This document shows, one piece after another, positions 1,398 through 7,655 of a stretch of DNA of 32,000 nt (position 1 is its first letter; every line of letters starts with the position of its first letter). Below the pieces are notes generated by a model. It saw only the letters and a program-made list of their open reading frames with translations. It was not told the origin of the DNA and did no database searches. The translations under genes were made by a program, and so were the position numbers. This DNA comes from Acinetobacter wanghuae (GTDB lineage Bacteria; Pseudomonadota; Gammaproteobacteria; Pseudomonadales; Moraxellaceae), in contig NZ_CP045650.1 in NCBI RefSeq assembly GCF_009557235.1, positions 1,170,001 through 1,202,000 on the forward strand. The letters run 5' to 3'.

Positions 1398-1814
1398 ATG
1401 CAAACCAAATCATATTTAACGCTTTCAGATGCAGAATTTTTATTAGATACAGCACATCAATATGCGATAGAACATAACTTTAATGTCAGCATTGCTGTCG
1501 TCGATGATACAGGCAATTTGCTTGCGATGAAGCGTATGGATGGGGCTTCACCCATGACGGCTAACCTGTGTTTAGAAAAAGCCAAATGTTCTGCGATGAG
1601 TCGCCGTCCTTCAAAGTTGTTTGAAGACTTGATTAAAGGCGGTCAAATGGGCTTTTTAACCATGGATTCTTTCGCAGGTATGCTTGAAGGTGGTGAGCCA
1701 ATCATGTTTGAAGAGCATTTGGTTGGTGCGATGGGTGTATCTGGAGTGAAGTCATTTCAGGATGCAGAGATTGCACAGCAGGCGATTGAGAAGTTTTTAG
1801 CTCAGATAAAATGA
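1398..1814 (+). CDS. GlcG/HbpS-like (DUF336) putative haem-binding protein
   Basis: 138 aa. The pattern L..A..LLD.A...A.E....VSIAVVD..GNLLA..RMDGA plus a C-terminal GAMGVSG motif is typical of the GlcG/DUF336 family. GAGGGG Shine-Dalgarno 8 nt before the ATG. Confidence 0.7.
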   Translation: MQTKSYLTLSDAEFLLDTAHQYAIEHNFNVSIAVVDDTGNLLAMKRMDGASPMTANLCLEKAKCSAMSRRPSKLFEDLIKGGQMGFLTMDSFAGMLEGGEPIMFEEHLVGAMGVSGVKSFQDAEIAQQAIEKFLAQIK

Positions 1815-2109
1815 GTGGATATTAAAGTTAGCTTTAGCTTTTAGGTACGTTTATAAAAAAGAGATCTAGCCATAATCAAATTTGATGTGAAACTTGAAAG
1901 ATCAATGAAAAAACCAAATTGGGTGTGATTAGTCTTTTTATTCCATGATAAAGCTATGATTAAAAAGAAAATTAAAATAATTAATATAACGTGTATTATG
2001 TTAATTTTAGTAAAAATTAATTTTTAAATGCGAAAGAAACAGTGATCGCTCGTAAACACTAGCTCAACTCTTATCTATAGCTATAAAAAATGATTTTTAA
2101 GGGGGCTTT

Positions 2110-2940
2110 ATGAATGTCGATTTATTAAATTTACAAATGGTATGTGTTCATGTTGTGAACAGCTACTCTAAGTCTGAAACAGGTTTCGGCTCTTACAAAA
2201 TTCCAGATATTAGATGCTCAAAACCGTTAATTTATAATGTTAAAAGAAACGATCAACTAGTTTTTTTACAGAGGATGTTAGATTTAAAAATTGATAATAA
2301 AGAGATCAATTTATCACTTCCTAATGAGATCGGACTATCATTGAATATATTTACTAAAGCTAGAGATGAAGCTGGAAATCTACTAGAAAAACTTAAAAAA
2401 GATATGGAGGAGAATAAAGATTTTTATAATGAAAATGTCTCGTTATTTTATGACTATATTGAAAAAATACAAATAGCATCTGTTTTTTCTTATAAAGCAG
2501 TTGAAGCATTTTGCAATGCCACAATCCCTAATGACTTCGTTTATAAAAAAACAAACTCAAAAGGTATTCAAGAAATCTATGAAATTTCTCAAATTGAAAA
2601 ATGGATACCAACTTCAGAAAAACTCACTGAAATTATTCCAAATATTTTGAATTGTGAATCACCTAAGCAAATCAAGTATTGGCCAATGTTTAAAGAGTTA
2701 GAAACCCTTAGAAATGAAATTATTCATTCAAAAAAGAGAAATAGCATTGAAAATACAAAGAAAATGTTATCAAAGAACATATTAGATATTCTTAATTCGA
2801 GCATTTATATTCTTAACCACTTTATTCAAAACGATATATCTAATGAGGTTTTTCCATTAGGTTTTTTAGATAACAAGTGGCGAATCTATGAAATTGATGA
2901 CCCGAAGAAAATTTTTGAGTGGATTCATTGCGCAGAGTGA
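2110..2940 (+). CDS. Hypothetical protein with HEPN-like Rx4H (RNEIIH) motif in a low-GC islet
   Basis: 276-aa ORF with a strong AAGGGGG Shine-Dalgarno 5 nt before the ATG. Codons are almost all A/T-ending. R201-N-E-I-I-H206 is encoded at nt 2710-2727 within a predicted helical C-terminal half. No housekeeping family is recognisable by eye. Confidence 0.7.
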   Translation: MNVDLLNLQMVCVHVVNSYSKSETGFGSYKIPDIRCSKPLIYNVKRNDQLVFLQRMLDLKIDNKEINLSLPNEIGLSLNIFTKARDEAGNLLEKLKKDMEENKDFYNENVSLFYDYIEKIQIASVFSYKAVEAFCNATIPNDFVYKKTNSKGIQEIYEISQIEKWIPTSEKLTEIIPNILNCESPKQIKYWPMFKELETLRNEIIHSKKRNSIENTKKMLSKNILDILNSSIYILNHFIQNDISNEVFPLGFLDNKWRIYEIDDPKKIFEWIHCAE

Positions 2941-3059
2941 ATTTTAGTGCCTCAGATACTCCTCTTTTGCTTATTTTAGTTTTAACATTTTAGTCTTTAT
3001 TTGGCTAAATCACCCTATTTTTAAGTATAGCCGCATTAATCAACTCTAGGCATATTTAT

Positions 3060-3099
3060 AACATAATGATGATTAGACGAAATGAATCGTCATTATGTT
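3060..3099. repeat. Inverted repeat / hairpin with a 15-bp stem
   Basis: AACATAATGATGATT (3060-3074) pairs with AATCGTCATTATGTT (3085-3099), with one G-T wobble and a 10-nt loop. No T tract follows. It lies between the islet gene and the next CDS. Confidence 0.6.
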
Positions 3100-3188
3100 A
3101 CAAGCATAAGCTCATGGATAGAACTTACCTTTTAATTTGATCTCAGCTAGCATAGCTCTAATTTCCACATATCAGAAAATCATCTCCC

Positions 3189-3896
3189 ATGCTGTATCCC
3201 ATGCCTAAAAAAATCCAACTCGCACCCTCCCAAGCGAAATGGCAACTATCAACAACTGACTCAGTTTTAGTATTAGTTGGATTACAAAACCTTCGTGCGG
3301 AATCAAGCATTCAAGACTCAGATCTGATGAACAACCTCGTTCAACTGACCAATCGCGCTAAGACTTTAAATATTCCTATTGTAGATTTGTATGGCGATGA
3401 CCTCATGCAAGGTATGCAACAACTTGGTGAATATGTCTCAACCCATCCACAACTGATGATTGCAGGGCAGATTAGCCCAATGCTGAAACAAATCTTGCCA
3501 CATATCAGTAGTGTGACGGATCAAATCTGTCTTATTGATGATGCAATTTTAATGGCAAATCAAGAACAACATATTCAATGGATCGATAACAATACCGCAC
3601 AAGGTATTCATCATATGAATGCTTATAGCCTGATGCGTTTATGGAATCTGAATGCACCATCACATTATATCTTGTCGACCAAAGGCATCATGCTTGCGGT
3701 GGCAGAAGCCATTGAAATGGATGCATTAGAAATTGATCCTTACGTGAGTTTAAACAGCTATGGACTCGATTCAGTAGCGATTGTGAGCTTGGTTGGACTA
3801 TGGCGTGCGCATGGTGCGAATATCAGCTACGAAGATGTCTTAACCCACAACACATTGCATGAATTGGTCAGCCTGATACTGCAATCGGCTGCCTAA
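3189..3896 (+). CDS. EntB-like protein: degenerate isochorismatase-like N-domain fused to an aryl/peptidyl carrier domain
   Basis: The C-terminal LNSYGLDSVAIVSLVGLWRAHGANISYEDVL..NTL.ELV parallels the EntB ArCP segment IDYGLDSVRMMALAARWRKVHGDIDFVMLAKNPTI, with the phosphopantetheinyl Ser in GLDS. The N-terminal KWQLSTTDSVLVLVGLQN parallels EntB KVDWAFEPQRAALLIHDMQ. The start codon has no clear Shine-Dalgarno; an alternative ATG is at 3201. Confidence 0.6.
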   Translation: MLYPMPKKIQLAPSQAKWQLSTTDSVLVLVGLQNLRAESSIQDSDLMNNLVQLTNRAKTLNIPIVDLYGDDLMQGMQQLGEYVSTHPQLMIAGQISPMLKQILPHISSVTDQICLIDDAILMANQEQHIQWIDNNTAQGIHHMNAYSLMRLWNLNAPSHYILSTKGIMLAVAEAIEMDALEIDPYVSLNSYGLDSVAIVSLVGLWRAHGANISYEDVLTHNTLHELVSLILQSAA

Positions 3897-4817: not shown

Positions 4818-7655
4818 GTGGAAAAATTGCAGCAGTTTGCTATTGGTCAACGTTGGTTATCAGATACAGAAACAGAGCTCGGTTTAGGGGTTCTCATTGA
4901 TGTAGATGAACGCTCGGTCAGCATTTTATTTCCAAAAAGCGATGAAACCCGTGTGTATGCACGTAACAATGCACCTTTATCTCGTATTGTGTTTAATCCA
5001 AAAGACGAATTACAAGATCAAGAAGGCACCAAGTGGATTGTAGAGTCAACTGAAGACCGCAATGGCGTGGTGCGTTATAACGTGATTCGTACCCTAGAAG
5101 ATGGGACAGAAGAACGTAAAGCGTTAAATGAAACCCGTATTGGGGCAAGCATTCAGCTGTCAAAACCGCTTGATCGTTTAATGGCAAGCCAAGTCGACTA
5201 CAAAGAATGGTACGACTTACGTATTGAAGCAATGCTCATGCAAGCCAATATGCACAGTAGCCCGCTACGTGGTTTAGTCGGTTCGCGTGTGGGTCTGATT
5301 CCACACCAATTGTATATTGCACATGAAGTCGGTCAACGTTTTGCACCGCGTGTATTGCTTGCCGATGAAGTAGGTTTAGGTAAAACCATTGAAGCTGGTT
5401 TGATCATGCATCAACAGCTCAAAACCGGTCGTTCAGAACGTATTTTGATTTTGGTACCAGATTCGCTGCAATATCAGTGGATGATTGAAATGCGCCGTCG
5501 TTTTAATCTTGAATTCTCACTGTTCGATTTGACTCGTACTGCATCCATTAAAGAACATGATCCAGATTTAAATCCATTCTCAACCGAACAACGCATTATC
5601 GCATCTGTTGATTTAATGATTGACCATGATGATTTACGCGATCAAGCCTTAGAAGCCGGCTTCGATTTATTGGTTGTCGACGAAGCGCATCATTTGATGT
5701 GGTCTGAAGAAGATGGCGGTAATGATCGTTACGACTTGGTGGAAGAGCTAGCTGAAAAAACACCGGGTGTATTGTTACTCACTGCAACGCCTGAACAGTT
5801 GGGTGTGGAATCACACTTTGCCCGTTTACGTTTGCTCGATCCGCAACGCTTTAGCTCGCTGGATCGTTTCTTGGATGAAGAAACGCAATATCAACACACA
5901 GCACAAATTGCTGAAGTGTTAATGTCGGATTTACCGCTTGAAGAAGCGCATATTGATGCGATTCAGGTGCTATTGGGTCAACGTATCGAAGATACGCCTG
6001 AGCAACGTTTCCGTGCCATTCATGAGCTCTTAGACCGTCATGGTACAGGTCGTATCTTGTTCCGTAACACCCGTGAAGCGATTCAAGGCTTCCCAGGACG
6101 TGATTGTCAGCCTGCACCACTTCCTGCACCTGCAAATTGGTCAATGGACGGCAAGCTACGTGAACAAATGTGGCCTGAAGAAGCACAATTAGATGGCGCT
6201 TGGATGGAAACAGATCCACGTGTTATGTGGTTGATGGAACGTTTACGTACTGATTTAAAACACAAGAAAGTGTTATTGATTGCGCGTAGTGGTCCTGTGG
6301 TTGAAGCTCTAGAAAATGTACTTCGTTTACATGCGGGTGTGCGTACTGCCATGTTCCATGAAGGCATGAGCTTATTGGAACGTGACCAAGCGGCAGCGTA
6401 TTTCGCTGAAGATTCATATGGCGCACAAATTTTACTCTGTTCTGAAATTGGTTCGGAAGGGCGTAACTTCCAGTTTGCTTCTGATTTAATTTTATTTGAC
6501 TTACCGTCAAACCCAGATGTGTTAGAGCAACGTATTGGTCGTTTGGACCGTATTGGTCAAGAAAATCGTATTCAGATTCATGTGCCGTATTTAATTGGTA
6601 CAGCACAAGAACGTATGTTCCGTTGGTATAATGAAGCATTGAATATCTTCGGTAATATTTCACCGACTGCGCAAACTTTGCAAGAAAACTTCATCATGGA
6701 CTTAAAAGGCTGCTTACTCGCCGATAAAGGTCAAGAATTTGAAGACTTGTTAGAAGCGGTGAGCGTGCAACGTGAAGCTTTAGAGGCTGAATTACAGTCA
6801 GGTCGGGATCGTTTGCTTGAATACAATTCTTGTCGTCCAATCGTGGCACAAGAAATTGTCACTGCGCTTGAAGACTATGATGACAATACGACGTTGCCCA
6901 TGTTTATGAAGCGCTTTATGGCGTCGACGAATATTGATTTTGATGAGCAAAGCAACGGTACGGTGATCATTAAACCAACCGATCAGATGCAAGTTCAAGG
7001 TTTAACCCTCGATGAAGAGGGGATGACCGCGACTTTCTATCGAGATCAAGCGCAAATCCGTGAAGATGCACAGTACTTAACCCTTGAGCATCCGTTCACT
7101 GAAAGCGTCATGGAAATGATCAATACGCAAGGCTTTGGTAGCACAAACGTAGCACTGTTAAAATCTGCGGCACTGCCTCAAGGCTCGTTGTTACTTGAAG
7201 TCTGGTTTAAAGTAGATGTAGTTGCACCGAAAGCATTGAACTTACCGTCAAGCTTGCCACAACAATTGGTTCGCGTGTTGCTCAGTGAAAAAGGTCAGGA
7301 TTTATCGCAAAAAATTGCACCTGAAATTTTGAAACCGTATTTACATCATTTAGATGGCAATAGCTGCCGCCAAGTGGTGAAAGCACGCCGCGATGTGATT
7401 GAAGCGCGTTATCATCAAGCATTAGAGTTGGCACGTGCGGCATTACCAAACTTCAAGCAACAAGCCAAAGAAGTCTATGGTAATAAATTCCAATACGAAA
7501 TTGACCGTTTAACTTACTTAAAACAGTTCAATCCAAGTATTCGTGAAGATGAAATTGCGCGTTTGCAAAAATTGCAAAAAGAAGGTTTAGGTTTACTCGA
7601 TGGTTTATCGGTAACACCTGAAGCGATTCAAGTCATGGTGGTGGTGAAACCATAA
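4818..7655 (+). CDS. rapA: RNA polymerase-associated Swi2/Snf2 ATPase RapA (HepA)
   Basis: N-terminus FAIGQRWLSDTETELGLGVLI matches E. coli RapA FTLGQRWISDTESELGLG. Helicase motifs LLADEVGLGKTIEAG and DEAHHL are present. The in-frame TTG at 4827 lies 5 nt after an AAGGTGG Shine-Dalgarno and may be the real start rather than the GTG at 4818. Confidence 0.95.
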   Translation: MEKLQQFAIGQRWLSDTETELGLGVLIDVDERSVSILFPKSDETRVYARNNAPLSRIVFNPKDELQDQEGTKWIVESTEDRNGVVRYNVIRTLEDGTEERKALNETRIGASIQLSKPLDRLMASQVDYKEWYDLRIEAMLMQANMHSSPLRGLVGSRVGLIPHQLYIAHEVGQRFAPRVLLADEVGLGKTIEAGLIMHQQLKTGRSERILILVPDSLQYQWMIEMRRRFNLEFSLFDLTRTASIKEHDPDLNPFSTEQRIIASVDLMIDHDDLRDQALEAGFDLLVVDEAHHLMWSEEDGGNDRYDLVEELAEKTPGVLLLTATPEQLGVESHFARLRLLDPQRFSSLDRFLDEETQYQHTAQIAEVLMSDLPLEEAHIDAIQVLLGQRIEDTPEQRFRAIHELLDRHGTGRILFRNTREAIQGFPGRDCQPAPLPAPANWSMDGKLREQMWPEEAQLDGAWMETDPRVMWLMERLRTDLKHKKVLLIARSGPVVEALENVLRLHAGVRTAMFHEGMSLLERDQAAAYFAEDSYGAQILLCSEIGSEGRNFQFASDLILFDLPSNPDVLEQRIGRLDRIGQENRIQIHVPYLIGTAQERMFRWYNEALNIFGNISPTAQTLQENFIMDLKGCLLADKGQEFEDLLEAVSVQREALEAELQSGRDRLLEYNSCRPIVAQEIVTALEDYDDNTTLPMFMKRFMASTNIDFDEQSNGTVIIKPTDQMQVQGLTLDEEGMTATFYRDQAQIREDAQYLTLEHPFTESVMEMINTQGFGSTNVALLKSAALPQGSLLLEVWFKVDVVAPKALNLPSSLPQQLVRVLLSEKGQDLSQKIAPEILKPYLHHLDGNSCRQVVKARRDVIEARYHQALELARAALPNFKQQAKEVYGNKFQYEIDRLTYLKQFNPSIREDEIARLQKLQKEGLGLLDGLSVTPEAIQVMVVVKP

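Follow-up and report, generated by a model that had tools for sequence, protein, structure and literature searches.

The closest described relatives of the element considered here are the dif modules of Acinetobacter Rep_3/OrfX plasmids, units that are bounded by an inverted pair of 28-bp plasmid dif (pdif) sites, in which a XerC and a XerD arm enclose a 6-bp centre, and that encode no recombinase of their own (Blackwell & Hall; Mindlin et al. 2019, PMC6449649; PMC13141974). Work on these modules has centered on their part in reshuffling carbapenem and tetracycline resistance genes among Acinetobacter plasmids, and their movement is still inferred, with Xer catalysis assumed but not fully demonstrated (PMC13141974). 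Extra pdif-like sites far from dif1, and modules that also occur on plasmids, have been described on chromosomes as well, as occasional modules or, in single strains, as resistance islands made up of several modules (PMC6449649; Wang et al. 2026, PMC12907356). In this study, we analyzed a 32,000-nucleotide stretch of Acinetobacter wanghuae (contig NZ_CP045650.1, positions 1,170,001 to 1,202,000; hereafter the window, to which all positions refer unless a locus is named), in which a single gene for a 276-aa protein (2110-2940) occupies an AT-rich islet (1815-3188) between a glcG-like and an entB-like gene. Our results support, with moderate confidence, an overall explanation in which the islet is an Xer cassette that sits in a conserved chromosomal slot and carries a solo HEPN RNase. 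The cassette itself is of a known kind, a dif module, whereas its setting, a conserved and hypervariable chromosomal pdif slot, is one that we did not find described.

The evidence for a cassette begins with the pdif sites. We scanned both strands of the 32-kb window for the 11-6-11 consensus (28 bp, 22 specified bases), allowing up to 4 mismatches, and found exactly two sites, which are inverted with respect to each other and bracket the open reading frame (ORF). The number of such sites expected by chance, estimated from 300 composition-matched shuffles of the islet, is 0.003. A D module is defined by XerD arms on the inside (PMC13141974), and because the XerD arms face inward here, the islet falls under that definition. 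We consider it very probable that it is a D-type dif module of ~1.1 kb (1979-3083) without a recombinase of its own, with the following parts:

1815-1978, no strand: native left spacer, outside the mobile unit (63% identity to A. lwoffii-group loci; the homology to locus L098 begins at 1986)
1979-2006, plus strand: left pdif site, C/D orientation, AATTAATATAA-CGTGTA-TTATGTTAATT (consensus scan)
2007-3055, plus strand: module interior, D-type, one gene (identity to loci L026/L069 and L098 and to plasmid pA2584)
2099-2105, plus strand: Shine-Dalgarno sequence AAGGGGG, 4 nt before the ATG (sequence inspection)
2110-2940, plus strand: cargo gene, 276 aa, two-domain solo HEPN-like protein (ORF and family alignments)
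3056-3083, minus strand: right pdif site, D/C orientation, minus-strand reading ATTTCGTCTAA-TCATCA-TTATGTTATAA (consensus scan)
3084-3188, no strand: native right spacer with an inverted repeat and a hairpin (collapse of identity to L026/L069)

The left site has a perfect XerD arm and three mismatches in its XerC arm, and it is therefore probably decaying; the right site has one mismatch in the XerC arm and three in the XerD arm. The corresponding left position carries the perfect consensus in A. variabilis and in many A. lwoffii loci, and the left site aligns with the pdif at 5439-5466 of plasmid pA2584. Counterparts of the right site lie ~100 bp before the entB-like gene in 20 other loci.

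The boundaries of homology to other carriers of the gene coincide with these sites. Two loci of the A. lwoffii group (L026 and L069) hold the module in the same slot, with 94.5% nucleotide identity over the module interior, whereas identity to the same loci falls to 63% in the left spacer and to ~22% in the right spacer (0.22 over its full length), and amounts to 81% in the glcG-like gene and 74–76% in the entB-like gene. Identity drops at the pdif sites, and the higher identity of the interior implies that the cassette is much younger than its surroundings. A third carrier of the A. lwoffii group in the same slot, A. lwoffii VE192-9 (L025, 5708-6537), has a copy that a frameshift has turned into a pseudogene (pieces of 224 and 58 aa), while the rest of the module is intact. 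Loci L098 and L099 encode a protein that is 88% identical (P0005) at an unrelated position in the chromosome, with guaA on one side and a padR/fur cluster on the other; the homology block in L098 corresponds to window positions 1986-3086 (86.4% over 1104 bp), that is, it runs from pdif to pdif, and decayed pdif-like sites flank it at either end. Finally, the 8.2-kb OXA-72 plasmid pA2584 of A. pittii, which belongs to a plasmid type assembled from dif modules, encodes a 90% identical protein. Homology to pA2584 starts at the C/D pdif site where the replication backbone of the plasmid ends and runs through the ORF, over which nucleotide identity is 85–95%, so that the boundary matches on the left side; the downstream part differs, since the module is fused there to a segment that carries orf75 and a YafO-family toxin and extends as far as the following pdif. 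Across three independent contexts (the A. lwoffii slot, L098 and pA2584), homology breakpoints fall on pdif sites, and horizontal exchange has taken place exactly at them.

A survey of the slot across the genus places this cassette among many others. Using the GlcG-like protein as query and one genome per species, we collected 80 Acinetobacter loci, of which 47 have both flanking genes on the contig. An inverted pdif pair is present at the equivalent positions, ~165 bp after glcG and ~100 bp before the entB-like gene, in 20 of the 47, in many cases with only 0–1 mismatches; seven loci keep one pdif, and the other 20 have neither within five mismatches. The gap between the flanking genes is only 5–68 bp and contains no pdif in A. 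gerneri, A. kanungonis and Acinetobacter sp. A7.4 (L063, L073 and L074), which probably represents the ancestral, slot-free state. Between the flanking genes of the 47 loci we counted ~40 unrelated clusters of cargo ORFs, and the HEPN-like gene is found in 4 of the 80 related loci (L026 and L069, the frameshifted L025, and L029 on a truncated contig). An earlier note on this DNA, made from the sequence alone, had proposed that the gene was horizontally acquired, and this comparison, with unrelated genes in the slot elsewhere, bears the proposal out and shows that the gene is not core. Our literature search found no published description of a single-cassette slot between glcG and the entB-like gene.

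The other cargoes are diverse. In A. lwoffii, the slot is most often filled by a module of 398 bp whose 100-aa ORF (orf100) has no family match (L039, 5575-5972), and this module is also found at full length, with 91.7% identity, on five plasmids of A. johnsonii and A. towneri. The orf100 module recurs in L040, L044, L045, L047 and L049, and a 234-aa relative occurs in L004/L005. In an Acinetobacter metagenome-assembled genome (L018, 5576-7864), a two-gene AbiLi-type abortive-infection system, comprising a 410-aa AAA_21 ATPase (PADLOC E = 2.8e-75) and a 149-aa ORF, lies between pdif sites and is a known defense system packaged as a dif module; no published account of defense cargo in dif modules emerged from the literature search. 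Further cargo includes a PLD-family nuclease, a dCMP/cytidine deaminase-like protein, DUF4238 and DUF6236. Many slot cargoes are ORFans without family assignment, and larger insertions contain insertion sequence (IS) elements and transport or regulatory genes. In A. pragensis (L031, 5610-8415), the insertion encodes an AraC-like regulator, a LysE-like transporter and a 395-aa class-C beta-lactamase-like ORF, as judged from translations only, and a palindromic pdif-like site lies at 7088-7115 of the same locus.

The slot is also a target of IS elements. The chromosome of A. lwoffii ED23-35 (L050, ~5575-7061) contains a 1487-bp insertion, made up of a 1482-bp IS and a 5-bp target duplication (AAAGA). 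A distance of 5 bp separates it from the XerC arm of the left pdif site in the slot. Two copies of an IS of this type are present in L048, and L052 also carries it. These features match the published signature of the pdif-targeting IS1202 family, which includes ISApi2 (1482 bp) and ISAjo2 (PMC10132070, PMC13141974). A pdif-specific element therefore recognizes the chromosomal sites of the slot as pdif, an observation that covers the orthologous sites rather than the window's own degenerate copy.

This locus thus shares with plasmid dif modules the inverted site pair, the D configuration, the AT-richness, the single accessory gene and the lack of a recombinase, and the very same unit stands beside a backbone module on pA2584. 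It differs in that the cassette is chromosomal and occupies an orthologous slot across many species, so that the chromosome takes the place of the plasmid backbone (the "C module"), in that its cargo is HEPN-like rather than a resistance, toxin-antitoxin or metabolic gene, and in the partial degeneracy of this copy's sites. The chromosomal islands described so far share its extra pdif-like sites and the occurrence of their modules on plasmids, whereas here a fixed slot receives a single cassette and accommodates dozens of cargoes genus-wide. Following the published model for dif modules, the module would most likely be moved by host XerC/XerD between plasmids and chromosomal pdif sites, with a cointegrate formed at one pdif and resolved at the other, so that cassettes are exchanged; different Acinetobacter lineages would in this way fill the conserved chromosomal slot with different cargo.

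The genes around the slot are arranged in the order thiE-like, hemL, glcG-like (HbpS-like), islet, entB-like, rluA and rapA, and the immediate flanks, two core genes that delimit the slot, are:

1398-1814, plus strand: glcG-like gene, HbpS-like haem-binding family (ORF and PF03928)
3189-3896, plus strand: entB-like gene, weak PP-binding match (ORF call)

Orthologues of the glcG-like product show 62–91% amino-acid identity across the 80 Acinetobacter loci, and the entB-like gene has orthologues in 47 of them; an exact-sequence look-up of the GlcG-like product itself returned no record. From the glcG-like stop (1814) to the entB-like start (3189), the spacer measures 1374 bp, and it has a GC content of 0.25–0.30 over ~1800-3000, compared with 0.39–0.48 in the flanking genes (300-bp windows), and the ORF itself has a GC of 0.280 and a GC at third codon positions (GC3) of 0.245, against 0.417–0.457 and 0.33–0.41 in five neighboring genes. 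The AT-rich islet reported earlier is therefore real by both measures. The low GC does not single out this one gene, since the same intergenic spacer is AT-rich in every species whatever its cargo, at 0.26–0.32 in most loci.

Within the spacer, the 276-aa ORF is intact and is the only one of at least 50 aa that lies wholly inside, in agreement with the earlier description of a single-gene islet; we found no second ORF of at least 50 aa inside the module. The absence of a partner ORF and of a ToxI-like repeat array also held when the islet was scanned for ORFs, tandem repeats and Rfam families: the only tandem repeat was a trivial one (9 nt × 2.2), and there was no Rfam match at E ≤ 1. The coordinates given earlier for R201-H206 (2710-2727) and for YKAVEAFCN (residues 128–136) are correct, while the gap between AAGGGGG and the ATG is 4 nt and not 5. 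Promoter and terminator scans were uninformative, because promoter-like sites were no more frequent in the islet (5) than in shuffles (8.8). No integrase is seen in the islet, as had been noted; the earlier note overlooked how the islet might move all the same, and the two pdif sites that bound it explain the missing integrase.

Two further features of the module's ends are recorded here. At the right end, a 19-nt inverted repeat (3056-3074 and 3085-3103, 89% complementary) puts a second XerD-like arm (TTATGTTACAA) just beyond the right pdif, and a terminator-like hairpin (3076-3091) overlaps part of the repeat; the repeat may be a relic of an adjacent pdif, or a transcription stop that shields the entB-like gene. 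At the left end, the ~35 bp directly inside the XerD arm of the C/D site (TTTTAGnAAnAATTAA..., window 2007-2040; L039, 5603-5640) are common to unrelated modules and match 300–800 Acinetobacter plasmids in PLSDB despite their differing cargo. This stretch might assist recombination as an accessory sequence, or serve the modules as a common promoter or leader.

The second part of our explanation concerns the cargo protein. AlphaFold2 (AF2) models of the full-length protein (predicted local distance difference test score (pLDDT) 83.8, predicted template-modeling score 0.80) and of residues 70–276 (pLDDT 85.4), together with the family alignments, define these features:

2110-2316, plus strand: N-terminal beta-rich domain, aa 1–69 (AF2 strands 8–17, 40–44, 49–61 and 64–69)
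2326-2832, plus strand: HEPN-like helical domain, aa 73–241 (AF2, Foldseek, HEPN-clan Pfam matches)
2503-2517, plus strand: E132-A-F-C-N136 (conservation; the acidic residue expected in HEPN helix 2)
2710-2727, plus strand: R201-N-E-I-I-H206, the Rx4H motif and predicted catalytic center (conservation; end of helix 191–206)

In the models, the core helices span residues 73–101, 108–138, 191–206 and 224–241, and an insert of a beta-hairpin and two helices (139–190) lies between them. The earlier note had left the N-terminal ~110 aa unassigned and had taken YKAVEAFCN for the first HEPN helix. The models revise both points, because only residues 1–69 lie outside the helical bundle, to which helix 73–101 already belongs, and because the YKAVEAFCN segment ends the second core helix (108–138). 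The N-terminal domain has no match in family libraries.

HEPN domains are characterized by an Rx4-6H motif at the end of helix 3, by a polar residue (mostly N, D or H) after the arginine and by an acidic residue in helix 2 (PMC3710099). The window protein has R201-N-E-I-I-H206 with N202 as the polar residue, and in the predicted structure this motif ends helix 191–206, from where a loop and a short helix lead to the long helix 224–241. The acidic residue is E132 (99% conserved) in helix 108–138, followed by an invariant N136, compared with the typical Ex3[KR]. The motif RNxxxH, including N202, is invariant in 25 close members of the family; in 85 diverse members, whose identity to the query is 22–53%, R201 is conserved in 100% and H206 in 98%. 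Among 150 representatives, 135 have R[NDHSTQ]xxxH, with RN dominant and RH, RD or RS occasional.

Profile searches point in the same direction. When each of the 85 members was scanned against Pfam (E ≤ 0.5), 18 matched HEPN_RiboL-PSP (best E = 3.5e-4), 13 HEPN_Cthe2314 and 11 DUF3644, which is listed as a HEPN family (PMC3710099), with rarer matches to HEPN_Apea (4), HEPN_Swt1 (3), HEPN_AbiV (1) and HEPN-like_int (1). The intervals matched by HEPN-clan models contain the R...H motif, and unrelated Pfam families match one or two members each. The window protein itself matches the PADLOC model of the CARF-HEPN protein Csx20 (E = 1.2e-4, residues 143–236). In Foldseek searches, the HEPN toxins 7ae6, 6m6u, 5yep, 7bxo and 1jog were the only matches in the Protein Data Bank (PDB) with high probability (0.82–0.96), at target-normalized template-modeling (TM) scores of 0.46–0.59 and Foldseek E-values of 0.18–1. 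A PDB sequence search with the single protein gave nothing useful, and a BFVD search of viral structures returned only noise.

None of these HEPN matches reaches a curated threshold or a significant structural E-value. For HEPN_Apea (PF18739), the window protein has no match and the best member scores E = 0.02, with 15.8 bits against a cut-off of 24.4; for HEPN_RiboL-PSP (PF18735), the window protein has no match at E ≤ 10 and the matches of other members are known by E-value only. The HEPN likeness proposed in the earlier note is nonetheless upheld by motif conservation, the recurrent HEPN-clan matches, the Csx20 model and the Foldseek matches to HEPN toxins, every one of these matches being below threshold. 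We conclude that the C-terminal domain is likely a HEPN domain of its own family. The protein fails membership of ApeA, RiboL-PSP and HepT/MNT, and it is a new, uncharacterized family within the known class of solo HEPN effectors.

Conservation extends beyond the HEPN motif. Three residues (R35, N136 and R201) are invariant in the 85 diverse members, and D33, P71, N72, E118, E132, P140, I162, K171, W191, L197, H206, K208 and P249 are at least 90% conserved. R35, in the otherwise variable N-terminal domain, is as conserved as the HEPN motif, and D33 reaches 95% (2206-2214); P71-N72 at the domain junction (2320-2325) is 94% conserved. Compared with the A. lwoffii copies, dN/dS is 0.18–0.19, and the gene is under purifying selection; the value against pA2584 was disregarded, because an indel shifts the naive codon alignment and makes it invalid.

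The gene is not the orphan that the earlier note took it for. A word-indexed search yielded 28 clusters, all labeled hypothetical, and an exhaustive profile search retrieved 1108 clusters (50% identity level), of which 723 had E ≤ 1e-10. The window protein also matches phrog_17113 (1.8e-35), a family without an assigned function, and PF27216 (YopA_C) appears as a weak tag on a few members. One subgroup of the family has N-terminal extensions of 130–200 aa. We found no description of this gene, or of the ORF of pA2584, in the literature.

Family members occur on plasmids, prophages and islands in Proteobacteria and Firmicutes and are solitary throughout. Downstream neighbors in five other contexts (Pseudomonas, Priestia, A. 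higginsii and metagenomic contigs) are mutually unrelated, in keeping with the earlier view that the gene stands alone; a conserved partner gene was rejected on this ground. Homologues form single-gene islets between housekeeping genes (L084, L088, L090), lie next to umuDC and the lysis genes where an A. higginsii prophage ends (L089), directly adjoin the integrase of a P2/186-like Klebsiella prophage (L104, L105), follow just after a tail-fiber assembly gene on a 54-kb phage contig (L092), or neighbor an ABC-3C-type conflict system that is accompanied by a resolvase and an integrase (L091). Others are on small plasmids (pA2584; L100–L103). These are positions where phage and plasmid accessory and defense genes sit. 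In the Klebsiella prophage (L105, 16354-16810), a separate protein annotated as PF18735 HEPN_RiboL-PSP is encoded ~7.5 kb from the homologue.

Stand-alone HEPN proteins that act by abortive infection now count as an established class, and several characterized HEPN proteins offer a comparison. HepS of Gifsy-1, whose activator is a phage tail-tip protein and which cuts tRNA at the anticodon (PMC13043305), is likewise a single gene with a canonical Rx4H motif, without a partner or inhibitor gene, in an accessory position on a mobile element. However, the window protein has no sequence relationship to HepS that PDB sequence-profile searches could detect, and HepS is absent from the Foldseek matches, and it has an additional N-terminal beta domain. 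ApeA, which is activated by deoxydinucleotides and cleaves tRNA anticodon loops (bioRxiv 10.64898/2026.01.26.701840), stands alone and has a ligand-sensing region apart from its catalytic center, but it differs in size and architecture, and the four family members that match its model score well short of the gathering cut-off. Structurally, the helical domain best matches HepT toxins of MNT-HEPN systems, which are 130–150-aa proteins paired with an AMPylating MNT antitoxin; here there is no MNT neighbor, and the window protein has longer helices, a beta-hairpin insert and the N-terminal domain. The HEPN proteins of integron cassettes (PDB 3jrt family; PF18867; PMC3710099) are also solo HEPN cargo of a site-specifically recombined cassette, but those cassettes use attC and IntI instead of pdif and host XerC/XerD, and only one of the 85 members weakly matches their model.

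By analogy with HepS and ApeA and from the gene's surroundings, we see roughly even chances that the protein is a stand-alone defense HEPN RNase activated by infection. In this reading, the cargo is a 276-aa cytoplasmic protein with an N-terminal beta domain, possibly a sensor, regulator or oligomerization module, and a C-terminal HEPN domain. It might be made constitutively as an inactive oligomer and be activated by an infection cue, whereupon paired HEPN domains would bring two Rx4H motifs together into an RNase site that needs no metal, and cleavage of tRNA or other RNA would abort the infection. The dependence on Xer recombination, the RNase activity, its trigger and the anti-phage role are what we infer.

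A number of observations weigh against this explanation as a whole. The window protein itself has no Pfam or NCBIfam match, and PDB profile searches with the 25- and 85-member alignments returned no HEPN protein, only the unrelated ORF48 (E = 0.64). It would be difficult for a cell to keep a constitutively toxic RNase for which it has no antitoxin, and the frameshifted copy in A. lwoffii shows that the gene is dispensable. Most other slot cargo consists of ORFans or, in larger insertions, of metabolic and transport genes, so that the slot is not a dedicated defense site or island; it is a hypervariable cassette site with mixed cargo, part of it defense-type. Finally, both pdif sites of the window are degenerate (3 and 4 mismatches), and this copy may therefore no longer move, in which case the cassette in this genome may be fixed in place. 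The imperfect sites, together with the lack of a recombinase encoded nearby and the homologues in Pseudomonas, Klebsiella and on a small Rep plasmid that have no pdif sites, could even be taken to mean that there is no Xer cassette at all, and that pdif-like sequences arose by chance in AT-rich intergenic DNA of the usual kind, holding either a lineage-specific gene or what a phage or transposon left behind. We regard this as extremely improbable, and it is already largely refuted by the 0.003 sites expected in shuffles, by the perfect-consensus sites at orthologous positions in many species, by the breakpoints at the sites in three independent contexts and by the pdif-specific IS that targets the slot's site. 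Three more specific origins were also rejected: a prophage remnant, for want of an att site or integrase; an integron cassette, for want of attC, IntI or an integrase-sized adjacent ORF; and a core lineage-specific gene, given the patchy distribution and the 94.5% identity across species with flanks at 74–81%. For the first two, the pdif sites at the boundaries count as a further reason.

The function of the protein leaves more room for alternatives. The same cassette could carry a HEPN protein that is a selfish or stress-related RNase, either an addiction-like stabilizer of the plasmid or module or a factor in stress dormancy. Plasmid dif modules very often carry toxin-antitoxin genes (PMC13141974), the gene on pA2584 lies in a module fused to a YafO-family toxin, and a dormancy role has been proposed for integron-cassette HEPN proteins (PMC3710099), whose model (HEPN-like_int) one family member matches. 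Yet no antitoxin-like partner is conserved in any context or present inside the module, the chromosomal and prophage-edge positions fit defense "moron" sites better than addiction loci, and the characterized solo HEPN proteins HepS and ApeA are anti-phage; we consider this alternative unlikely. Less probable still is that the HEPN likeness is superficial, and that the helical bundle presents its conserved R...H patch for ligand or nucleic-acid binding, for regulation or for a non-RNase enzymatic activity. All profile matches are below threshold, Foldseek E-values are 0.18–1, helical bundles often match spuriously and de novo bundles are also among the Foldseek matches, and the invariant R35 with the conserved D33 hints at a second functional site. 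On the other hand, seven independent HEPN-clan models recur, whereas unrelated families appear once or twice only, and only HEPN toxins combine high Foldseek probability with a target-normalized TM score of ~0.5 or more. An Xer cassette in a conserved slot with a solo HEPN RNase as its cargo is the explanation we retain.

A broader and more tentative model is that the slot is a genus-wide site of XerC/XerD cassette exchange, a one-cassette counterpart of an integron without an integrase, at which genes including AbiLi and a solo HEPN RNase, with the D-x-R beta domain as its infection sensor, are swapped with plasmids. If this model is true, the pan-immune system would also travel on dif modules, whose role would then go beyond antibiotic resistance. 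The presence of anti-phage AbiLi and of HEPN, PLD and deaminase cargo of a defense-like kind suggests that Xer cassettes also spread immune genes, and the ORFan cargoes could be mined for new systems. A slot that is found in many species with dozens of cargoes provides natural before-and-after evidence for cassette exchange and a convenient site at which to assay it. The HEPN-like family is a reasonable candidate for a new single-gene abortive-infection system, and the finding would be worth more if the slot is a general Xer route for immune genes and the family is indeed such a system.

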